64,000 bases of DNA, from IMG/VR virus record IMGVR_UViG_3300025073_000042, positions 1 through 64,000 of that record. The stretch is one strand, 5' to 3'. This document shows positions 3,699-61,156 of the stretch, one piece after another (positions within the stretch are counted from its first letter, which is position 1; the number at the start of each line of letters is the position of its first letter). The notes beneath the pieces were generated by a model that had not been told where the DNA came from, did not search any database, and was given only the letters and a program-made list of their open reading frames with translations. The stretch is from a virus. The position numbers were made by a program, and so were the translations under genes.

Positions 3699-3950
3699 AT
3701 GACCGACCTCCCCGCCCGCTTCGCCAAGCTCCGCCTGCTCCGCGACACCGCCGCCGCGAATGCGCGGATCGCGCAGGAGGATCACGCCGCCCTGGAGGCT
3801 CGCGCGAAGGCCGGCCACACGGTCCTCGCCTCCGAGTGGACTCAGGTCGCCGAACGCCTCGCGCGGAGGCGCGCGGCGAGGGACGCCTACCAGTTGGCGG
3901 TAGAGGTCGTGGGCGCGGACGAGGAGGGCGCGGATGCCGCCGCAACCTGA
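3699..3950 (+). CDS. hypothetical protein
   Basis: MTDLPARF after GGAGGTG. Confidence 0.5.
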   Translation: MTDLPARFAKLRLLRDTAAANARIAQEDHAALEARAKAGHTVLASEWTQVAERLARRRAARDAYQLAVEVVGADEEGADAAAT

Positions 3951-4488
3951 GAGGGCCACGATGGCTACGGGACACGCGCGAGGGAACACATTGCGGTGGT
4001 CGGAGACAGACCCAGTGTGGCGCTATGACGACGGGACCCCACTGCCGGGTGACCCATCTCGCGAACGGACTTGTGTGCGCTGCGGTCGGTCTCCGACGCC
4101 GGAAGGCCACGATGCCTGCCTTGAGACAATCCGCGGAGTCTCCTCAGCCTGCTGTGGGCATGGGGTAGATGATGCATACGTCGTCTATTCGCCCTCTGCG
4201 CGGGTCTGGATGCGCGACCGTTCCGAGTGCTACCACATGAGTCGATGCTGTGCCGAGTCGTCCTTCGGGTGGGGCGCCGTGGAGGACTGCGACGGGAATC
4301 AGATTTACTCGTGGCGCGAAGTCTCGCTGGGATGGGCTCGGCGGCGCGGAAAGCGGCCATGCGAGCGATGCGGTGCCAGGCTGCCGAAACCATCCGACCC
4401 CGATCTACTCAACCCGACCTTCCGCCCCGCGCGTGCGGGGCTGATGGAACCTGACGAGGCCGAGAGGCCGGAGGGAGAGACCGATTGA
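3934..4488 (+). CDS. Cys-rich hypothetical phage protein
   Basis: CxxCG..PTPEGHDACL...ACCGHG motif. Confidence 0.6.
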   Translation: MPPQPERATMATGHARGNTLRWSETDPVWRYDDGTPLPGDPSRERTCVRCGRSPTPEGHDACLETIRGVSSACCGHGVDDAYVVYSPSARVWMRDRSECYHMSRCCAESSFGWGAVEDCDGNQIYSWREVSLGWARRRGKRPCERCGARLPKPSDPDLLNPTFRPARAGLMEPDEAERPEGETD

Positions 4489-19213: not shown

Positions 19214-21058
19214 GTGAAGACCGCCTTGCCGATCCCCCGCTCGCACACGCCGACCGTCGAGCTGCTGTCCAAGGCCGCGCCGAGGCGCCGGGCCTTCCCA
19301 AGCGACCAGCGCATCTCCGGCAGCCGTCAGGCGCGCGCGCCCTCTGAACTCTCGCACCTCGCGCAGACTGGCAACGCGATGGTGCAGAGCCGCTTGTTCA
19401 GGACGCGGCGCAACGATCCGGATGTGTACGGGATGCTGAGCCGGCTGCGCTCGCGGGTCCCCGAGCACCGCATCGTGGAGTCCGAGGGCTTCGAGGGAAA
19501 GGGCGACGATGCGACGCGCGAGGGGCTGCTGCGGCTGTTCCACCGGCCTGACGGACAGCATTCGTACCGCCAGCTTCTGTCGGTGAGCGTTGACCGGCTG
19601 AAGTGCATCGGTTCGGCGCACTGGTTGCTGCGCCGGGCCGAGGAGGTGCGCGAGCAGCTTGGGCAGCGGGTGGACGTGCTGGCGAAGGACCTGTTGGCCG
19701 AGTATCCCGGCCTGCCGACCGGCGTGCTGAGCGCGCTGTGCAACAGCTTTGCGCGGGAGCTGAGCAAGCAGGTCGAGACGCGCGGCGACTCGGACGTGGT
19801 GGGCTTCGAGGTCATGTACGGGTACGTCTGCCAGCATCCCAAGGACGAGACGAAGTACGTGCAGACCGTCGGGAGCGGGATGCGCGGCACGCAGGAGTTC
19901 GAGGCGCGCGACGTAGTGGAGTTCATCCGGCTGGACCCGGAGACAGGTCGGCCGCTGGGGGCGCTCGCGACGCTGGAGGCCTGGAGCGACGCTTCGATCT
20001 GGGCGTTCTTGCTGAATCGCGACTCCGCGCGGACCGGGGCGATGGCTGATCGCATGATCGCCATCGAGGGTTTGAGCGACGCAGAGCGTTCGCGCATCGA
20101 GGGTCTCATGCTGTACCGCGCGGACCCGACGCAGACGGACAAGGGTTTCATCCCGATGCTCTTGTCGCTGCAGGCGTCGTTCGAGGGGCGGGCCCCGGTG
20201 ATCCACGATGTCGAGCTGTCGAACAAGTCTCGTGATGCGGGTTGGATCGAGTGGGACCGAGACGTTCTCAAGAAGCGCAAGGGCGCGGTGACGGGGGTGC
20301 CCCTGCCGCTCGTGGACGAGTGGCAGACGGTGAACCGGGCGTCGCTCGACGCTTACTACCAGCTCTTGATCGACTTCGAGTGGTGGCCGCTGTTCTGCGA
20401 CCTGAACGACCCGATCAACGACCGCATCCTGCAGGACGAACTCGGCGTGCAGGACTGGATACACGAGTTCGTGGAGCCCGACCTACGGAGCAGCGAGGAG
20501 CGGTTTCGGCAGGACATGGAGCAGATGGGCGCGGGGCTGCGGACGCCCTACGCGATGATCGCCGACGAGGAGGGAGCGCCCGAAGCAGACCGGATTATCG
20601 CCGACCTCGATGCCCGTGGTCTGGACGGCGGCGTTTTGAAGCTCCCGTGGTTCAAGACCGGCAAGGGCTGGCAGCCGATCACGGAGGTCGTTGGCCGCAA
20701 GGGCGAGCCGCCGCCGACGGTCGGGGCGCAGGACCTCGCGCGACAGATGCAGGGGAAGCCGGGCCCGTCGCTCAACGATCCGAACGCCGAGCCCGACGAA
20801 GAGCAACCTCCGCCCGAACTTGAGAAGCAACTCGCGGCGCTTGACGCCTGGCAGACGGCGTGCAACGAAGCTCTGAGCAAGGGCCTTGATCCGGGCACGG
20901 CGTGGCCGGACGAGGTGAGCGTGTATGACATCGAGGAGCGCCACCTGCGTGATGTGGATGCACGGTTGACGGGCGCAGAAACGAAGCCCGAGGTGTCGGA
21001 CGCCTTCGCGCCGGCGCGGCGGGCGCTGCGCGACGGGCTGAAGGCGGTGACGGCATGA
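19214..21058 (+). CDS. portal protein
   Basis: L..LFHRPDG..SY, DRLKCIGSAHW, F...DVV.F, G.P...V; size and position between TerL and head genes. Confidence 0.75.
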   Translation: MKTALPIPRSHTPTVELLSKAAPRRRAFPSDQRISGSRQARAPSELSHLAQTGNAMVQSRLFRTRRNDPDVYGMLSRLRSRVPEHRIVESEGFEGKGDDATREGLLRLFHRPDGQHSYRQLLSVSVDRLKCIGSAHWLLRRAEEVREQLGQRVDVLAKDLLAEYPGLPTGVLSALCNSFARELSKQVETRGDSDVVGFEVMYGYVCQHPKDETKYVQTVGSGMRGTQEFEARDVVEFIRLDPETGRPLGALATLEAWSDASIWAFLLNRDSARTGAMADRMIAIEGLSDAERSRIEGLMLYRADPTQTDKGFIPMLLSLQASFEGRAPVIHDVELSNKSRDAGWIEWDRDVLKKRKGAVTGVPLPLVDEWQTVNRASLDAYYQLLIDFEWWPLFCDLNDPINDRILQDELGVQDWIHEFVEPDLRSSEERFRQDMEQMGAGLRTPYAMIADEEGAPEADRIIADLDARGLDGGVLKLPWFKTGKGWQPITEVVGRKGEPPPTVGAQDLARQMQGKPGPSLNDPNAEPDEEQPPPELEKQLAALDAWQTACNEALSKGLDPGTAWPDEVSVYDIEERHLRDVDARLTGAETKPEVSDAFAPARRALRDGLKAVTA

Positions 21059-21252
21059 TGCTCAAACGCCGCCCAGGCGAGACGCGCGAAGCCTGGCAGG
21101 CGCGGGTCGCACGGCAGCGCGCGGACGACGTGAAGCCGGGGGACCTGGCGCAGGGCTACTACGACCTGACGACGCGCGTCGCAGCGCGGATGGTGCGCTT
21201 CGCGCGGCGGTTGGACCGCGAGCTACCGGCGCTGAAGCAGCCGGGGTCGTGA
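21055..21252 (+). CDS. hypothetical protein
   Basis: ATGA-coupled to portal. Confidence 0.5.
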   Translation: MMLKRRPGETREAWQARVARQRADDVKPGDLAQGYYDLTTRVAARMVRFARRLDRELPALKQPGS

Positions 21253-21276
21253 ACGACGGATCACAGAGAGGAGCAC

Positions 21277-21657
21277 ATGACACCCCAACCCGACCCCGAC
21301 CCTCCCGAATTACTCGGCTCGATCACCGACCTTCGCGCCTCACGCGATCCGCTAACGCCCGAGGAACTGGAACTCCACGAGCTGCGCGAGTTGATCCGGC
21401 AGGCGTGCGCGAAGGGCCACGCGCAGACGGAGGCGATCCTGCAAGCCCTCGCTGAGGCGACGAACGCCTCGGTGCTGGTGGTGCGGCCGGTGGACTTCCA
21501 GGACGCCGAAGCCGCGACTCGCCTGCGCGACATGCTGGCGAAGGCGCTGGGCTGCGGGATCGTGCTGTTCCCCTCGCGGATGAACGAGGTCTTCATGCGG
21601 GCCGTAGAAGTGGCGCGCGCCGAGGTGCGCGAGGCAGCAGCCTCGAAAGTGAACTGA
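21277..21657 (+). CDS. hypothetical protein
   Basis: ATG after GAGAGGAG. Confidence 0.55.
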   Translation: MTPQPDPDPPELLGSITDLRASRDPLTPEELELHELRELIRQACAKGHAQTEAILQALAEATNASVLVVRPVDFQDAEAATRLRDMLAKALGCGIVLFPSRMNEVFMRAVEVARAEVREAAASKVN

Positions 21658-21658
21658 C

Positions 21659-22576
21659 ATGCCCCGCGCCGTCCCCCTCCCCGGCCAGGGAACGCGCCGC
21701 GCCCTCGGCGCGGTGCAGCAGCGCGAGTTCCCCTGGCTGAACGCGGCGACCGAGAAGAAGCTGCGCGGGGCGACGACCCGCGAGCAGTGGATCGACCGGG
21801 TGGCGAACGCCACGAGCTACAACCAGCGGGACAGCGACGAGCTGGCCGAGCGCATCTTCAAGACCCGACTGCGCTGCTACGAGGATCGGGTGACGACCGA
21901 GCTGCGTCGGACGGGGGTCCTGAAGCCCGGCGACCGCTGGCGGCTCTCGCCGGATGCGAAGCTGCGCACGGAGCTGCTCGACGAGTCACATCAGCAGGTC
22001 GAGCGAATCTCGGCGACCTACGATCGCGACCGCGGCGCTTGGGCGAAGCGCATGAAGGGCCAGCGCGTCCGTCAGAACCGCTACGGCGTGGCGAAGGACT
22101 TCGACGAGTGGAACGAGAGGCGGGCGGCGTGGAAGGCGAAGCAGATCGAGGACACGGAGTCGATGCTCGCGGACATGCGGGCGGGCGATGACCTGTACTC
22201 GAAGAGCGGGATCGCGGACCCGAAGCGGGACAAGTCCTGGTACTGGCAGACGACGGCCAGCCGGGCGGGGGGCCTCGTGCGCAAGACGCGAGCGAGAGGC
22301 GCGGGGAGAGGCCGGAAGTCCGGCAAGACGAAGGCGGCGGAGGGCCCCTGCGCGAGGTGCCTGCGCGTCCAGGCAGGCAACCCGTATACCCGGAAGGCGC
22401 TGATCCAGCGGGCGAAGGACCTCGGCGCCATCGACCCCAAGCACTTCGTGATGCACCCGAACGAACGCTGCACGGTCCTCTTCAAGCCGGGCGGCCAGGC
22501 GCTGCGGACGAAGGCCAACCGGGCAAAGGCAGAGAAGTGGGCGGCGCGGTACGGCGAGATCGAGAGGGCGGCCTAA
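21659..22576 (+). CDS. MuF-like minor head (head morphogenesis) protein
   Basis: C-terminal CARC...HPNERC resembles MuF CxxC...HPNCRC; lies after portal. Confidence 0.6.
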   Translation: MPRAVPLPGQGTRRALGAVQQREFPWLNAATEKKLRGATTREQWIDRVANATSYNQRDSDELAERIFKTRLRCYEDRVTTELRRTGVLKPGDRWRLSPDAKLRTELLDESHQQVERISATYDRDRGAWAKRMKGQRVRQNRYGVAKDFDEWNERRAAWKAKQIEDTESMLADMRAGDDLYSKSGIADPKRDKSWYWQTTASRAGGLVRKTRARGAGRGRKSGKTKAAEGPCARCLRVQAGNPYTRKALIQRAKDLGAIDPKHFVMHPNERCTVLFKPGGQALRTKANRAKAEKWAARYGEIERAA

Positions 22577-22594
22577 CAGAGAGGAGCATCGAGC

Positions 22595-22885
22595 ATGTAC
22601 TGCCACTGCCTGGCCTGTCGCAAGCATCCGCGACACGGGGGCCTCAACAGCAAAGACGAAGACGAAGCGGTAGCGATGTACGTTCAGTGCTTTGATCGAA
22701 GCGAACATCCCGTCAAGCTCAGCGATGACGTCCGCAACCTTGTGTGCTATGGGGAAAGTGGCCCCCTGGTACACGGTCCTCGTGTGGATGCAGAGTTCAC
22801 CTGCGCTGCCTACGACGAATGCTCCGGCTGCCCGGTTTGCCAGCCGTTGCCGACGTGGGCGAAGGAGAGGTACGGGGAGCCATGA
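22595..22885 (+). CDS. Cys/His-rich hypothetical protein, paralog of 611..910
   Basis: shared CxxHPxH and CSGCxxCQPLPxW. Confidence 0.7.
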   Translation: MYCHCLACRKHPRHGGLNSKDEDEAVAMYVQCFDRSEHPVKLSDDVRNLVCYGESGPLVHGPRVDAEFTCAAYDECSGCPVCQPLPTWAKERYGEP

Positions 22886-23054
22886 CCCGCGAGCAGGCTG
22901 ACCAAAACATGCGTCGGATGATCCATCGGTCCCTTACGAATCCCGAGCGGCGTCCGCTCGTTATCGGACCAACAGCCGCCCGCGAGTTCGCTCGGCAATT
23001 CGGGAAGCTGCCGAGTGGGATAGTCGTTGCGCAGAGGGTACGGGAGGCGGCCCC

Positions 23055-23399
23055 ATGACCCGCATCCTCGTCCCCGACACCAAGCTCGCCGAGGCCGACC
23101 TCGCGCACATCGCCGACTGGCCGGCGGACCTCATCGACATCGACGCGACGGCGACCGTCCGGCGCGCTGACGGCGAACTGCGGACGGGGGTCGTCTGGTT
23201 CTACTCGGAGGACCGCGAGTGGTGCGTGGCTTTCACCTTAGAGCAGGTGCAGGCGCATCGCCTCCACGACCGCGGCTCGCCGCTCAACTTCCGCCGCCTC
23301 GTCGAAGCCGAGATCGAATCTTCCCGCCGCTCGCACATGCAGGGCGGCGCATGGGTGAGGCCGGGATGCAGCCCCAGGTCCACGATCCTCCAGCCGTGA
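23055..23399 (+). CDS. hypothetical protein
   Basis: ATG after GGGAGG. Confidence 0.6.
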   Translation: MTRILVPDTKLAEADLAHIADWPADLIDIDATATVRRADGELRTGVVWFYSEDREWCVAFTLEQVQAHRLHDRGSPLNFRRLVEAEIESSRRSHMQGGAWVRPGCSPRSTILQP

Positions 23400-23599
23400 C
23401 CGCCGAACTGCTTCCGCGCGGCGGGGACGAGGTGTGCGTCGTCTGTGGGGCCTCGGGCTGCGCGGGGCGGCCCTACGCGCGCCCCCGGGTGCTGGCGCTC
23501 ACGCGCGTCGAGCGGCTGTTGGGGGGCGAGTTGCAGCGGGCGGCGGGCCGTGCGTTCGAGGCGACGTGCCCGAGGTGCGGGGCGACGAATCAGCTGTGA
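23396..23599 (+). CDS. small zinc-ribbon protein (Mu Com-like)
   Basis: CVVCG...EATCPRCGATN. Confidence 0.5.
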   Translation: MTAELLPRGGDEVCVVCGASGCAGRPYARPRVLALTRVERLLGGELQRAAGRAFEATCPRCGATNQL

Positions 23600-23603
23600 T
23601 GGC

Positions 23604-23632
23604 TTGACGCGATAGGGTGTTCGCAGTATGCT
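23604..23632 (+). promoter_or_regulatory. sigma70 promoter of candidate ncRNA
   Basis: TTGACG-17 bp-TATGCT. Confidence 0.75.
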
Positions 23633-23638
23633 GACCTC

Positions 23639-23858
23639 GCTCGTCCCAGGTAATGACCTCGCGAGGGGTCAGGTGAGCAGCCGCGGTGGGGAATCCGCCC
23701 CGTCCCGGAGCGGCACCCCCGGTCCCGTTTGAGGAGCGTGTACCCGGACTCAATCCCGTGGCCACGGGGAGTTCGGGGGCGCCGGCCATAACCTGGCTAA
23801 ACCCGCCCATGTCTTCACATGGGCTGAAGGCCGCTCCGCGAGGGGCGGCCTTCGCTTT
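23639..23858 (+). ncRNA. candidate structured non-coding RNA (~220 nt), family unrecognised
   Basis: own promoter and terminator; hairpins 23654-23671, 23755-23768, 23781-23797, 23805-23824; no credible ORF. Confidence 0.6.
23826..23858 (+). terminator. intrinsic terminator
   Basis: GAAGGCCGCTCC-GCGA-GGGGCGGCCTTC followed by GCTTT. Confidence 0.7.
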
Positions 23859-23863
23859 GGGGG

Positions 23864-23892
23864 TTGACATCATCGACGGCTCTAGGTATACT
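23864..23892 (+). promoter_or_regulatory. strong sigma70 promoter for the pentamer array and RAMP-like gene
   Basis: TTGACA-17 bp-TATACT. Confidence 0.85.
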
Positions 23893-24011
23893 GAAAGCAC
23901 TTCGAGAGCTGTGCGGGTTTTGCGTTTTCGGACAACCTCTTCGGCCCCGGCAGCCCGCGCAGCTCTCGAAGGCAGCGCAAGCAGTCGGGGCCGATTTGTG
24001 TTTCAATGAGA

Positions 24012-24386
24012 GGCGAGGCGTGGTACGGTACGGCGGGCTCGGGTTTGGTTGGGCGGGGCAAGGCAGGGCGAGGGTCGTTTGCTATCATCCGCTTCCATTG
24101 GCGTGGTGTGGCCGGGTGATGTGTGTTTTGGTGGGTCCTGGCGGGGTGAGGTTGGGCGAGGCGAGGCGAGGGCTGTAACCGCCATTCTACCTCTTCACGA
24201 GGTGAGGCGCGGTCCGGCTTGGTCCGGCTTGGTAAGGTAGGGTAGGGGTCGTTCGCCATCATCCATCTTCTCACGGTGAGGCAAGGTCAGGTGCGGCAAG
24301 GTCAGGTGAGGTGCGGTCTGGTCTGGTGCGGCAAGGTTTGGTCCGGCGAGGCGAGGCAGGGCGAGGGTCGTACCAATCACATCCCA
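24012..24386 (+). repeat. array of four GGY-NN pentamer tracts (12, 14, 9 and 18 units) with conserved linkers; candidate guide RNAs
   Basis: tracts 24012-24071, 24100-24169, 24201-24245, 24275-24364; each followed by GGGTCGT/GGGCTGT and a C/T-rich linker. Confidence 0.9.
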
Positions 24387-24400
24387 AGGAGGGAGCAGAC

Positions 24401-24958
24401 ATGCAGACGTTCAGGGCAAGGATCGAGGGACTGTCGCCGCTGTTGATGCACCGCTTCAGCGAGGAAGCGGAGAAGGCCGTTGAGGAGCAGATCAAGACGA
24501 AGAAGGCCGATCACGGGACACCGGAGGAGGAGGCCGAACGCGCCGCATATCGGATCGACGGCCTGAACAGCGAGCTGTACCTGCCGGGCGAGGCGGTCTA
24601 CCAGTCGCTCGTGAAGGCTGGTGTCGGCTTCGCCGTCCCTGGCGCGCGGGGGAAGACCTACAAGGATTCTGTGAAGGGCATGGTCGTCATCCAGCCGGAG
24701 TGCATTCCGCTCGGCACTGATGAGTACGTCCTCGACTCGCGCCGGGTACGCATCCAGCGCGGAACGTGCATGAGGAAGCGCCCTCGCCTCGATCAGTGGG
24801 CGGCGGAGTTCGAGGTTATGATCTTGGACGAGGAGGCGTTGCCACCTGCGACGCTACTCGCCATCCTGCAGCGCGCCGGTCAGATGGTCGGGGTGCTCGA
24901 CTATCGTCCGCGCTTCGGGCGCTTCCAGGTGACGCTGTGGGAGCAGGTCGCGTCGTAG
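24401..24958 (+). CDS. stand-alone RAMP/Cas7-like RNA-binding protein (185 aa)
   Basis: FRARIEGLSPLLMH (beta1-SPL), LYLPGEAV (cf. IPGSS), RPR...W..EF, Gly-rich C-terminal loop AGQMVGVLDYRPRFGRFQV; RBS AAGGAGG. Confidence 0.7.
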   Translation: MQTFRARIEGLSPLLMHRFSEEAEKAVEEQIKTKKADHGTPEEEAERAAYRIDGLNSELYLPGEAVYQSLVKAGVGFAVPGARGKTYKDSVKGMVVIQPECIPLGTDEYVLDSRRVRIQRGTCMRKRPRLDQWAAEFEVMILDEEALPPATLLAILQRAGQMVGVLDYRPRFGRFQVTLWEQVAS

Positions 24959-25245
24959 GTGTTCGATGGTTGCGGCCAAAGCACGGTCGGACGAGACCCG
25001 CATTCGTGCGGGTCTTTCGTCGTCTGGCCCTTGACAAGCCTCGCCCGCCTGTGCTAAGAGAAGACCGTCGCACCACAACAGAAGCTCGACGGTCCATCGT
25101 GTGTCGTGCCTGAAACGTTGCCCTCAGCGGGGGCAGCGTCTCGTCGGAGGCCCCGGAGGATCGCCGCGTCAAGCGCGTAGGGCTCAACCCCCTGCGCCTC
25201 GACGTTCGGCGACCCCGGGGCCGCCGTCATTTCAGGAGGCACGCA

Positions 25246-25746
25246 ATGGACAGCACGGCGCTCCGCCCGAAGATCGCCCCGGTCGGCTTGTTCCGCACCG
25301 TTACCACCGACGACGACACCCAGAACCTGCCCGCCGTGAACACGTTCGCGCGCAACCCCGATGGTGCCTACGACTGGTGCCGGGTCTTCGCGCGCGTCTA
25401 CTTCCACGGCGACGCGGATGCGACGGTCAATCTGCGCTTCGCGACCGGCGTGCAGGACGGGGTGAACGGCGTCTCCTCGTCCGTGGAGCTGAAGGGTTGG
25501 CTCGTCGAGCCCATCGGCGCGTTCGGCGTCGCAGCGGACCTCACGCCGGATACGCCGGTTGTGGCCGACGGCAGCCACCAGCACCAGACGCCCTCGCTGA
25601 CCGAGGGCTGCTACGCGATCGACGTGCCGGTGTACGGCATGGACCTGTGGGTCGCGGTGAGCGGGTTCGCGGGCTACCCGACGGCCTACGATCCCGACTC
25701 GCAGGTAGAGTTGGCCGGGTGCTTCTTCAACAAGGCTGGTACCTGA
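25246..25746 (+). CDS. hypothetical (possibly virion) protein
   Basis: beta-rich ORF with RBS AGGAGG. Confidence 0.65.
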   Translation: MDSTALRPKIAPVGLFRTVTTDDDTQNLPAVNTFARNPDGAYDWCRVFARVYFHGDADATVNLRFATGVQDGVNGVSSSVELKGWLVEPIGAFGVAADLTPDTPVVADGSHQHQTPSLTEGCYAIDVPVYGMDLWVAVSGFAGYPTAYDPDSQVELAGCFFNKAGT

Positions 25747-25868
25747 TAGGCTCGCGGGTCTATCGGCAGGGCCGACCCACCGGCCCATAGAGATGGCCTC
25801 ATGCGATAGAGGCATGATCGGCCTACTCAACTCGTGCGAATGCGCGAGGAGTGGGGGAGCGGTGAACG

Positions 25869-27863
25869 ATGCCCTGGGCGAGCTACGCAGAAGCGAAGCA
25901 GGCGGCACCGGGCTTGGTCTCGGTGCGCCCGAATGCACAGAGCAAACCGCAGCCCGTCAAGAACAAGGCGGCGCTCGACGCGCTGGCCGCGATGTACGAC
26001 GCGGTGCAGGCGCGGGGCGGAGTGGACAATCCGGCGGCCGTCGCGAAGGCGACGTTCGTCAAGGCCTGGCGGCACAATGGCAAGGGCGTTTGGGCGAAGC
26101 ACGTCCCGCTGAGCAAGGAGGTCGCCGTGAGCGAGGTACAGGTTCCGTTCGAGAGTTACGGCCCACTCGTCAAGGCCTACGAAGAGGGCGGCAAGCGGTA
26201 CGTGGTCATCTCTTGCGCGGACGACGGGCCGGACCTACAGAAGGGCGAGGTGCGCGGGCAGCGGACCATCGCCGACGTGATCGATCTGACGTTCCTCGAG
26301 AAGATGGCGCAGGAGAACGTCGCGAAGGCCGTGCCCCTCGTCGCCACGCACGAGGACCCGTTCCAGAACGAGTGCCCGTTGGGCAAGGCGGTGGAGTCCT
26401 GGGTCGAGCCCGCCGGTTCGACGCGCTTCGGGAAGAAGCTGGCGCACAACACCCTCCTGACGAAGTTCGAGCTGACGGACGGCGACCCCCGCACTGAGGT
26501 CCTGTGGAAACAGGGTGCGACGGGTAGCGACGCGCGAGGCACGAGCGTCCACGGCGGCATTACGCGGATCGCCGTCGAGCTGGCGAAGAATGCGGCGGGC
26601 TACGTGCGTCGCATTCTGGACGGGCACGTCGATCACCACGCCGTCCTCGTCCCGGGGCGCGCGGCGAATCCACGCATGGGCATGGTGGCTGCCATGAGCA
26701 AGGCGCTGCAGGAGTCGGGCGCGGAGATCGCCGTGCCGGACGGGCTAGACAAGGCCGAGGTGAAGCTCTGGGGGGGCGATGAGTGCATGACTGGCTACGT
26801 CAAGACCGAAGATGATGCCTACACGGACCCCTGGCCGGTCGGCTCGAGCTTCAACGAGACGATAGCGGCCATTCGGATCAAGGTCGAGGCCCCGCGCCTG
26901 GCCGGCGTCTTCCGGGCCGTCGTGGATCGTATCATCGCGGCTGACGCGGACGACGTGCCGAACAAGGGCGCGGCGCTGGCGAAGGCCGCCGACGAGTACC
27001 AGGCGGCGCTCGACCGGCTGATGGCGCAGGGCGACCTGAGCAAGGCGCAGGCCGACGAACTTGCGGACGAAGCGGCGGCGCTCGTCGAGACCGCCGAGCC
27101 GACGACAGAGACCGACGCACAGACCGCGACGGGCTCGCTCGTCGCAGAAGACGGCGGCACGGCCGCCAAGGAGGCTACACCGATGGCCGAGCAGACGCTG
27201 GAGAAGGCCCTCGACCCGAAGGCGGTTGGGGCCGTGTTCGCGAAGTTCGCCCGAGCGGTCAACCCGCTGCTGAAGTTGATGGGGGGCGGCGACGAAGACG
27301 CGCTGCCCGAGGGGGACGGCGAGGCGACCGTCGAGACGGTCGAGAAGTCGCTGCAGGAGATGGACGCGGGAGCGGGCCGCTTCGCTCTGCTGTCGAAGGG
27401 CTTCATGGCGCAGATGTCGATGGACCCGGCGAGCAAGGCCAAGGCCGACGCGGAATGCCGGATGAACGAAACGGGTCAGACGCCGCACAAGGGTGCGATG
27501 GGCATGGCTCCCGGGGCGATGAGCAAGGAGCAGATCGACGAGTTCGCCGAGGCGCTCAAGGCGCAGGGCTACGTGCTTGCGAAGGCCGAGGCGCCACCGG
27601 TCGTCGCGCCGGTTGTCGCCGATCCCCCCGCCGACGAGATCGAGCGGGTGGCGAAGCTCCTGGCGAACGAGGGGCTGGTCAAGGCGGCCCTCGGCAAGCT
27701 GGATGGCGCGACTCGCGAGGCGCTGAACAAGGCGCTGGGCCCGCAGTCCGCGCAGCCGCCGGCGGATGCCGGGGCCGAGGACCCGTTCGCCGCGCTGAAG
27801 GCGTCGCCCAGGTCGGACGCGGACTTCTACGCGCAGTTCCTGCGGAGCAAGCAGCCGCAGTAG
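25869..27863 (+). CDS. prohead protease-scaffold fusion with ChaB-like N-terminus
   Basis: LVATHE (His), GTSVHG (Ser), AANP; long Ala/Glu-rich C-terminus; directly upstream of capsid. Confidence 0.7.
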   Translation: MPWASYAEAKQAAPGLVSVRPNAQSKPQPVKNKAALDALAAMYDAVQARGGVDNPAAVAKATFVKAWRHNGKGVWAKHVPLSKEVAVSEVQVPFESYGPLVKAYEEGGKRYVVISCADDGPDLQKGEVRGQRTIADVIDLTFLEKMAQENVAKAVPLVATHEDPFQNECPLGKAVESWVEPAGSTRFGKKLAHNTLLTKFELTDGDPRTEVLWKQGATGSDARGTSVHGGITRIAVELAKNAAGYVRRILDGHVDHHAVLVPGRAANPRMGMVAAMSKALQESGAEIAVPDGLDKAEVKLWGGDECMTGYVKTEDDAYTDPWPVGSSFNETIAAIRIKVEAPRLAGVFRAVVDRIIAADADDVPNKGAALAKAADEYQAALDRLMAQGDLSKAQADELADEAAALVETAEPTTETDAQTATGSLVAEDGGTAAKEATPMAEQTLEKALDPKAVGAVFAKFARAVNPLLKLMGGGDEDALPEGDGEATVETVEKSLQEMDAGAGRFALLSKGFMAQMSMDPASKAKADAECRMNETGQTPHKGAMGMAPGAMSKEQIDEFAEALKAQGYVLAKAEAPPVVAPVVADPPADEIERVAKLLANEGLVKAALGKLDGATREALNKALGPQSAQPPADAGAEDPFAALKASPRSDADFYAQFLRSKQPQ

Positions 27864-27975
27864 CCGTACAGCGGGTCGGACTCACCCTTCGCGGCAACGA
27901 CGCAGCCTGCGACGCAGCAACGACGGTCCCGCGCGGCGGGACGACCCGACACTCGACGCACCTGGAGGGAGACCC

Positions 27976-29382
27976 GTGGACGCAGGCCTCTATGATGCAC
28001 TGCTGAACAAGGCGCTGACCAGCGCCTCCGACTCGGGTGGAGCGTGGCAGGACCACATCTTCAACCCGATCTTGACGGACGCGGCCAAGAAGAAGCGGCC
28101 GATCCTGGAGTACCTCAACATCCGCCCGGCGAACGGCAACCCGCACGTCTTCCGGCGGCGCGACTCGATGCCCTACATGCACTGGCAGGGCGCGGCTGGC
28201 ACGCCGGTCGCGACGCAGAGCGGCGTCTCCGGCCCGTCGGTCAACCTGAAGGTCTGCACGGGCAGTGGCGCCGTGGAGAGCTTCCTCATCTCCACCATCG
28301 GTCCCGACAACTTCGACGTGGCTTTGGCCGAGGTCATGGGCTTCATCGAGGGGACCGCGATGCAGGTGTCGGCCTCGGTGCTGTGGGGCGACGCGGGGCT
28401 GAGTGCCACGGGCGTTGAGACCTCCGGCAACGGGAACATCTACATGCCCCCCGGCCTCGATGCGGACACCGGCATCATGCGGATCAACGGGGCCGGGGCG
28501 GCGCTCACGGATGCGCTGTTCCAGAAGCTGCTGGACACGACCAACGTTGCGGGCATGACCGGCAAGCGGTTCGCGATCATGTCCTCGATGATGGCCTCGC
28601 GCCTGGAGGCTGTCACGCAGTCGCTCGGCGCGCGGTACATGGTCGATGAGGAGGGCCTCTACGGCCGCCGGATCAAGAAGTACCGGGACTGCTACATCCT
28701 GGAGAGCGACCAGACCCGCCCGCGGGCGGTCATGGGCGCGATCTCCTGCGCGGGCAGCGACGGAAGCGGCACGCTCTCGAATGGCACGTACTACTACTAC
28801 GTGGCGCCCGTCACCGCCGAGGGCGAGCAGCTTCGCCAGGCCGCTGAGGCGGACGTCACCCTCGCCGCCGGCACGGCGACGCAGAAGGTGACGATCACCA
28901 TCACCGCCTTCCAGTTCTCCGACACCAACGCGTTGTATGCCGATGCCGTGTACTACAAGATCTATCGCGGCACGGGTACTGGCGCGGAGGTGCTCGTCGC
29001 GACGGTTCCGGCGCTGTCCTACAGCTCGGGCACCGTGAGCGGCGCAGACACGACGCTTGTGGATGACGGCACCGCTGACACGCGCGGCGGCGTGACGGGT
29101 TCGCTGCCGGGCGGTGTGTCCTCGGCCGACGACGAGCTGACTGGTACGGTGACGGCGCCCGAGGAGTGCATCTTCCTCGTGAACGCCGATCCGGCCGACG
29201 GCATCGAGATCGCGGCCAGCGCCAACAAGTCGGCGCAGGCCATCGGCGACAACGACCTGTTCGGCCTCGTGCGCCTGGGCAAGTCGGCGCTCAACGAGCC
29301 GTTCGCGGTGGGGTCGTTCGTCGCTCCGGTCATCAAGCGCGGCGCGTGCCACGGTGTCCTGCGGCGCGTGCTCGCGGCGTAG
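27976..29382 (+). CDS. major capsid protein with inserted beta-sandwich domain
   Basis: follows scaffold; KALT...GGA, LWGDA, GLDA and Y.D..I.ESD resemble HK97-fold blocks. Confidence 0.75.
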   Translation: MDAGLYDALLNKALTSASDSGGAWQDHIFNPILTDAAKKKRPILEYLNIRPANGNPHVFRRRDSMPYMHWQGAAGTPVATQSGVSGPSVNLKVCTGSGAVESFLISTIGPDNFDVALAEVMGFIEGTAMQVSASVLWGDAGLSATGVETSGNGNIYMPPGLDADTGIMRINGAGAALTDALFQKLLDTTNVAGMTGKRFAIMSSMMASRLEAVTQSLGARYMVDEEGLYGRRIKKYRDCYILESDQTRPRAVMGAISCAGSDGSGTLSNGTYYYYVAPVTAEGEQLRQAAEADVTLAAGTATQKVTITITAFQFSDTNALYADAVYYKIYRGTGTGAEVLVATVPALSYSSGTVSGADTTLVDDGTADTRGGVTGSLPGGVSSADDELTGTVTAPEECIFLVNADPADGIEIAASANKSAQAIGDNDLFGLVRLGKSALNEPFAVGSFVAPVIKRGACHGVLRRVLAA

Positions 29383-60571: not shown

Positions 60572-60918
60572 AGCGAGTCCTGTTGCCGTTCGTGCTGTTC
60601 GCCCTGGCCGCGGCGGCCGTCGCCGACGGGGCGATTGAGGTGTCCGTCGTTCAGTCCACGTTCGTCGGTAGGCCATTCGTCGGGACGGTCGGGAGCATCC
60701 GGCTCTGTACGCTGGAGGCCCCGAACCCGTTCGGCGAGCTTGCCTGCTACGCGGACGGTGGCGTGCGTCTCAGCGAGACGACTGAGAACAGCATTGCGGG
60801 TTTCCTCGTCGGCGCATCGGTAGGCCAACGCGGGAGTGCACTAAGGTTCGGAGCGGGGTACATTTACCCAGACTCCAGCCTGACGGTATACACAAGGGCA
60901 GTTCTCATGCGGTGGTGA
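60568..60918 (+). CDS. exported beta-strand-rich protein
   Basis: signal peptide, amphipathic strands, C-terminal aromatic residue. Confidence 0.6.
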   Translation: MKRVLLPFVLFALAAAAVADGAIEVSVVQSTFVGRPFVGTVGSIRLCTLEAPNPFGELACYADGGVRLSETTENSIAGFLVGASVGQRGSALRFGAGYIYPDSSLTVYTRAVLMRW

Positions 60919-60921
60919 TTG

Positions 60922-60950
60922 TTGACTTCGCGGTCTCGACATGGTACTAT
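60922..60950 (+). promoter_or_regulatory. sigma70 promoter upstream of structured leader and HNH gene
   Basis: TTGACT-17 bp-TACTAT with TG extension. Confidence 0.7.
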
Positions 60951-61156
60951 GTAAAGGCCTGCGGAGGCTACCACAACTGACCTAAGATCACCTCGCCCGA
61001 CTTCGACCCGCCTCCGCAGGCACGGTCGGAGTCGGGCGTTGTGTTTCCGGCGAGGGTGGGGCGGGATCGAGACCTGCCAGTTCTGGCGTTGGCCCGCCAG
61101 ACCGCCTTAGGACATAGGGGAGGCTCACCCTCGGCCAGCCGGATGGGAGGAATTGG

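Follow-up and report, generated by a model that had tools for sequence, protein, structure and literature searches.

A tandem array of GGY-NN pentamers in the genome of an uncultured phage raises the question of whether its variable NN dinucleotides act as a guide that reads a target discontinuously, and of the system to which such a guide would belong. The window analyzed here is a stretch of 64,000 nt taken from an IMG/VR virus record of 79,951 bp, which is estimated to be 96% complete. An earlier note on this DNA had suggested that every NN pairs with two bases of the target and skips the third (NNx), and that such a wobble-skipping code would resist synonymous escape. This proposal coincides with the published mechanism of VIPR (Viral Interference Programmable Repeat; 10.64898/2026.04.26.720920), and the locus carries features of this family.

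VIPR is a CRISPR-like phage weapon described in three bioRxiv preprints of 2026 from the Doudna lab (10.64898/2026.04.26.720920, 10.64898/2026.04.26.720927, 10.64898/2026.10.15.759431). Its experimental exemplar is the type II VIPR of Escherichia phage SUSP1. According to the first of these works, the Vipr protein is an early-branching RAMP, and the vrRNA consists of 9–16 YNNGG units followed by a 3′ tail; it is the NN bases that recognize dsDNA, following a “1-nt skip” rule, which was derived from target searches with 0–3 skipped bases and confirmed by in-vitro competitive binding and GFP repression, the skip bases lying overwhelmingly at codon wobble positions. The targets belong for the most part to rival phages, prophages and satellites, and self-targeting is absent. 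Seven VIPR types were distinguished, all of them sharing one code or a related consensus and some having a variant repeat consensus; internal degeneracy is common in vrRNAs, and a vap gene is typical, if not universal (10.64898/2026.04.26.720920). Cryo-EM revealed a gapped duplex with one protomer per unit and one extruded target base, in which the GGY bases are flipped out and held by the SUSP1 residues H17, R138, D177, W178 and R179 (10.64898/2026.04.26.720927). VIPR decides the outcome of phage-satellite competition, and decoy vrRNAs exist (10.64898/2026.10.15.759431).

We consider it highly probable (about 0.9) that the locus is a VIPR of an uncultured phage, in which one promoter drives the leader, four vrRNAs and vipr. 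A Vipr homologue, the RAMP fold, the GGY-contact residues, the GGY/NN tracts and a viral origin were all found, major head and head-tail adaptor genes being located just downstream of the locus. What the present work establishes is the anatomy of the cassette, the homology and fold of its protein, the conservation of its GGY contacts, the lack of self-targets and an NN composition that is codon-like across the family.

Anatomy of the repeat cassette

The GGY-NN pentamers fall into four tracts at positions 24012-24367 of the + strand, and together these contain 53 NN dinucleotides. Their parsing reproduced the array location and the number of dinucleotides given in the earlier note, and the periodicity is far beyond chance, as 24 matches to a five-unit GGYNN pattern fall inside the array and a single one in the rest of the window, with 0.02 matches expected in shuffled sequences. 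The GGY triplet is perfect in 49 of the 53 units, and 13 different NN are used (TA, AT and TC being absent). Within the 79,951-bp phage record, such an array was found only once.

All elements of the cassette lie on the + strand, in the order promoter, leader, four repeat RNAs, vipr and hairpin. The putative sigma-70-type promoter (23864..23892; TTGACA, 17 nt, TATACT) agrees with the consensus in 11 of 12 positions, 0.2 such sites being expected in shuffles. It is followed by a leader of 119 nt (23893..24011) with a predicted long hairpin (MFE -55.5 kcal/mol, z = -3.4), a stability attained by none of 200 shuffles. The first repeat RNA, vrRNA 1 (24012..24099; tract T1, 24012-24074), comprises 12 units, 11 of which are perfect and one has GCT, with the NN series GA GT AC AC GG CG TT TG GG AA AG GA; GGG and a tail of 25 nt follow the tract. 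In vrRNA 2 (24100..24200; tract T2, 24100-24172), 11 of the 14 units are perfect, the degenerate ones being TGT, GTT and GTC, and GGG is followed by a 28-nt tail. Both remaining tracts are perfect throughout: vrRNA 3 (24201..24274; tract T3, 24201-24248) has 9 units, GGG and a 26-nt tail, while vrRNA 4 (24275..24400; tract T4, 24275-24367) has 18 units, GGG and a 33-nt tail, which holds the ribosome-binding site of vipr (AAGGAGG). With unit counts of 12, 14, 9 and 18, T4 alone exceeds the published range of 9-16.

The vipr gene itself (24401..24958) encodes 185 aa, has a GC3 of 0.85 and possesses its own ribosome-binding site and ATG. Downstream of it, a hairpin with an 8-bp G+C-rich stem and a TTCG loop, followed by TTTCGTCGTC, was read from the sequence (24995..25024); together they are likely to form the end of the cassette transcript. 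This hairpin, the T run of which is short, was not called by the automated terminator scan. A new promoter-like site comes after the hairpin, and the next gene after vipr (25246-25746, 166 aa) matched neither Pfam nor PHROG.

The four tails, 25–33 nt in length, share one plan: GGG, then TCGT or CTGT, then a pyrimidine-rich stretch. Over the first 19 nt counted from GGG, T1 and T3 are identical except for two pyrimidine positions (T or C). Pseudoknot-free folding gave z values from -0.33 to +0.29, none of the tails exceeding its shuffles, and a scan for relatives with the T1/T3 tail motif returned a single chance match with no array beside it. Ahead of GGG, the final three NN of each tract are composed of purines only (AA/GA, AG/GA, GA/AG; 24055-24074, 24155-24172, 24231-24248 and 24350-24367), and these positions may be part of a conserved 3′ handle rather than of the guide.

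Two further peculiarities of the tracts should be mentioned. Internal repeats of 10 nt in T3 (24211-24233) and of 15 nt in T4 (24275-24331), in which NN doublets and triplets recur, suggest either guide growth by slippage or targets built of short tandem repeats with a unit of 6 or 9 bp. As to the GGY pyrimidine, T and C are about equally frequent in this window, whereas in the pooled IMG/VR arrays (among the loci listed) C occupies this position in 84% of units (1648 C vs 325 T).

Several features were noticed around the cassette. The region 23604-23859 forms a unit of its own: it has a promoter-like site (TTGACG, 17 nt, TATGCT) and, near its end, a G+C-rich hairpin, shows no convincing ORF, and may encode a structured RNA just upstream of the VIPR cassette. 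The Rfam search over 20000-28000 yielded no significant match, the only sub-threshold one being P26 at 23790-23851 (E = 0.85); since Rfam was empty over this region, no hammerhead ribozyme is interspersed there. A small ORF just upstream of the cassette (23219-23599), for which neither Pfam nor PHROG gave a family, has a zinc-ribbon-like motif, CxxC ... CxxC, at its end. Finally, the leader (23893-24011) bears weak similarity to the region 60915-61060, both containing a hairpin and then the same TTGTGTTTC; the hairpin with TTGTGTTTC may represent a shared regulatory signal in this phage.

The Vipr protein and its relatives

The product of vipr belongs to phrog_4652 (E = 1e-22) and has no Pfam family. 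By tblastn it matched Escherichia phages phiSUSP1 and SUSP2 (E = 2e-9, 97% query coverage), and the full-length alignment with SUSP1 Vipr gave 26% identity. Residues that hold the GGY bases in SUSP1 have their counterparts here: H17 corresponds to H17, R127 to R138, D167 to D177, Y168 to W178 and R169 to R179, so that an aromatic residue, Y168, stands in place of W178; in addition, SUSP1 K33 aligns to K25 of this protein. R127 and R169 are invariant among 45 homologues, and the G-loop motif G-x-L-D-Y-R-P-R-F-G is nearly so. When the AlphaFold2 model (pLDDT 93.5, pTM 0.88) was compared with the PDB by Foldseek, the top matches came from three kinds of effector complex, namely chains of type VII, type III-A Csm and type IV-A (probability 1.00 with a TM of about 0.55). 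The vipr product is a minimal RAMP/Cas7-like Vipr protein. An identical protein occurs on 14 contigs; a protein look-up in the genome contigs collection found no close relative.

The association of such proteins with pentameric arrays extends well beyond this phage. Scanning of IMG/VR with an eight-unit GGYNN pattern detected at least 120 loci, many of them with a multi-tract layout beside a vipr-like gene. Among the matches listed, a profile built from the 45 homologues detected a Vipr-type protein in the fetched flank of 82 of 120 loci, and 78 of these 82 have their arrays on the vipr strand, either upstream or downstream of the gene. Two loci, L065 and L091 (IMGVR_UViG_3300042516_001671, 3910-4170), gave the top-scoring Vipr-profile matches in the IMG/VR sample. 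The Vipr of L091 shares 32% identity with that of the window, and its tracts are only about 7 nt apart (GGTACAT or GGTACGC), forming a compact array with no long tails.

These data bear on the reading in which the repeats are no guide at all, being instead a G-rich structural or protein-sponge RNA (with two-tetrad G-quadruplexes, or bound by a repeat binder of the TRAP/CsrA type), a DNA-level site or a coding repeat of pentapeptide period. GG recurring every 5 nt could in principle build G-quadruplexes, TRAP binds triplets spaced 2–3 nt apart, and one reading frame passes through T4 open into vipr. No frame, however, is open over the whole array, and vipr starts from its own ribosome-binding site and ATG; moreover, the NN are variable while GGY is fixed, and from phage to phage such arrays stay closely associated with Vipr genes. 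Published pull-downs and structures also show Vipr binding such RNAs (10.64898/2026.04.26.720920, 10.64898/2026.04.26.720927). We therefore regard a non-guide role as extremely improbable.

Codon-like composition of the guides and the search for targets

If the NN of VIPR guides are read with one skipped base, their composition should be considered in terms of codon positions. The earlier note had translated the tracts by the NNx scheme into plausible peptides. The same peptides were obtained here; their plausibility, however, is no test of the code, because only TA and TG can yield a stop and almost any NN string translates. The absence of TA among the 53 NN, also pointed out there, is real but carries no information: TA makes up 1.5% of the window dinucleotides, so that the chance of drawing none in 53 is 0.44, AT and TC are absent too, and among 1,615 NN pooled from other phage arrays (among the loci listed) TA is found at the background level (3.2% vs 3.0%).

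The wobble proposal was tested indirectly. Long ORFs of the fetched loci served to build dinucleotide models of the three codon phases for either strand, and a mixture of these models was fitted to 166 unique IMG/VR guides. Codon positions 1-2 received 93% of the weight (bootstrap 72-100%), 67% being sense and 26% antisense, as compared with 20% for control strings taken from genes at a 5-nt period, i.e., out of phase. The commonest NN in other phage arrays (GC, GA, AA, AT, GG and GT) are the first two codon bases of Ala, Asp/Glu, Lys/Asn, Ile/Met, Gly and Val, respectively. Among the guides of the window, T4 and T2 scored 2–7 log units better under sense positions 1-2 (or under antisense positions 2-3, which are similar in composition) than under the other models, and T1 and T3 were uninformative for codon phase. 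The NN composition thus fits codon positions 1-2, although other constraints on the RNA could explain compositional evidence of this kind.

The same composition weighs on the reading in which the locus encodes a guide for Vipr in a different register (with a 0-, 2- or 3-nt skip) or one directed at RNA instead of DNA. The tails and the missing vap do set this locus apart from the tested type II systems, and some VIPR types have a variant repeat consensus (10.64898/2026.04.26.720920). Against this, the fit of the 166 guides to codon positions 1-2 is sensible only with a 3-nt target period, the GGY-holding and skip-adjacent backbone residues, including K33/K25, are conserved with SUSP1, and the code, or a consensus related to it, is common to all seven types (10.64898/2026.04.26.720920). 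A different register or an RNA target is, in our opinion, very improbable.

As for the targets, the earlier note, having seen no matching peptide in the window, had placed them outside it. At skips of 0–3 nt, nothing in the 79,951-bp genome matched better than shuffled guides, except for the array itself, which matches at skip 3. This is in line with the published VIPR, for which the phage genome likewise contains no self-target.

External targets were sought with exact seeds or with ≤3 mismatches in partial collections, which covered part of a full gapped search, and no target for the four guides was recovered in the collections and seeds used (the large collections being searched at skip 1). 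In IMG/VR, the exact 1-nt-skip seeds T4 NN1-11, T2 NN1-11, T1 NN1-10, T4 NN9-18 and T3 NN1-9 produced 0 matches each. Against 401 Armatimonadota genomes, T4 (14 NN, ≤3 mismatches) also produced 0 matches. Two matches of the T4 NN3-12 seed in metagenome contigs, one of which is situated in a phosphoglucose isomerase gene, were rejected, as they agreed at 25 and 26 of 36 bases, with the remainder at about the chance level. Similarly, T1 (12 NN, ≤3 mismatches) had one match in 301 Armatimonadota genomes (21 of 24 bases), which was rejected at a chance expectation of about 0.5; the in-frame ORF at this site looks spurious, and the likely real gene puts the skip base on codon position 2, so that the match is out of codon phase. 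For 166 guides of other phages searched against 1.1 Mb of fetched loci and this genome, no skip length rose above shuffles, because a database of 1.1 Mb is too small.

The lack of a target in any of the searches run is what would be expected if the VIPR locus were decaying, orphaned or a decoy, its guides having no living target or serving to divert a rival's Vipr. The three degenerate GGY units in T2 and the slippage-like 10- and 15-nt repeats inside T3 and T4 point in the same direction, and decoy vrRNAs have been described (10.64898/2026.10.15.759431). On the other hand, vipr is intact, with a strong ribosome-binding site, high GC3 and all key residues kept, and the T3 and T4 arrays are perfect. 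The negative result of the target searches is itself weak evidence, because exact seeds or ≤3 mismatches were applied to partial collections, and the host lineage is poorly sampled. Considering both sides, we find a decaying or decoy locus rather unlikely and retain the reading of the locus as a VIPR with a guide role for its RNAs.

The host of this phage presumably belongs to a lineage that is poorly sampled and probably unusual. For a prepilin-like phage gene (51907-52593), the best-matching relatives over the full length come from Armatimonadota MAGs, with an identity of 36-38%, which is a weak clue to a host within Armatimonadota.

Proposed mechanism and place of the locus in the VIPR family

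By analogy with SUSP1, one Vipr protomer would bind each GGY-NN unit with GGY flipped out, and the NN dinucleotides would be presented for pairing with dsDNA, one target base being skipped between pairs (NNx). The skipped base would usually be the wobble position of a codon, and synonymous mutations would for this reason give no escape. Through its binding, Vipr would shut down transcription at the target; the most likely targets are genes of rival phages, prophages or satellites, or genes of the host. RNP formation, the 1-nt skip rule and silencing at this locus are carried over from the preprints and should be read as such; the code at this locus is supported by membership in the family and by the NN composition, and we infer that this particular locus is active.

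Compared with SUSP1 VIPR, the locus is alike in having a small phage-encoded RAMP of about 20 kDa, tracts adjoining vipr on the same strand, GGG with a tail, conserved GGY contacts and no self-target; one vrRNA lies upstream of vipr in SUSP1 as well. Unlike in SUSP1, all four vrRNAs are here located upstream of vipr in a single unit from promoter to hairpin, one guide has 18 units, T2 contains three degenerate GGY units, the ribosome-binding site of vipr falls within the last tail, and the protein identity is only 26%. The SUSP1 tail forms a pseudoknot, whereas the tails found here are short, pyrimidine-rich and without predicted structure. Also in distinction to SUSP1, no vap accessory gene is present in the transcription unit, and no homologue of vap1 (phrog_5926) was found in the phage genome. 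The host here is probably outside Proteobacteria.

The backbone subunits of class 1 CRISPR-Cas complexes (Csm3 of type III-A, Cas7 of type VII and Csf2 of type IV-A) share with Vipr the overall fold, and those complexes also have one protomer per RNA segment and periodic base flipping (10.64898/2026.04.26.720927). They differ in the arrangement of the guide, which in class 1 complexes has five paired bases and one flipped, while the VIPR guide is non-contiguous, two of every five RNA bases being read and two of every three DNA bases recognized. Only one RAMP gene is present at the locus, and no CRISPR repeat-spacer array, cas1, cas2 or other cas genes were detected nearby; the repeats have periods of 5, 10 or 15 nt only, and the neighboring ORFs scanned had no Pfam match, to Cas families or to any other.

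It is possible, although we put this forward tentatively and with considerable doubt, that the locus represents a minimal, vap-less VIPR subtype, in which the guides are co-transcribed ahead of vipr and have short unstructured tails. As the tail of vrRNA 4 contains the vipr ribosome-binding site, a Vipr filament on vrRNA 4 could throttle its own translation in such a subtype. Under the same tentative proposal, VIPR would also occur in phages of a phylum that has been poorly sampled (possibly Armatimonadota), and the guides would have targets that still await sequencing.

Taken together, these results place the locus as a divergent member of the VIPR family; its mechanism is already published, and the locus adds no new principle. 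What deserves attention is that the central idea of VIPR, i.e., a non-contiguous guide for which codon positions 1-2 count and the wobble base does not, was arrived at from raw sequence alone. As an example of the family it is a divergent one, given 26% identity, no accessory gene, short unstructured tails, an 18-unit guide and, probably, an unusual host lineage. Such examples help to map the dispensable parts of VIPR, which is useful for compact programmable DNA binders, and the targets of this locus, once known, would reveal competitors or host genes that are silenced by phages of this lineage.
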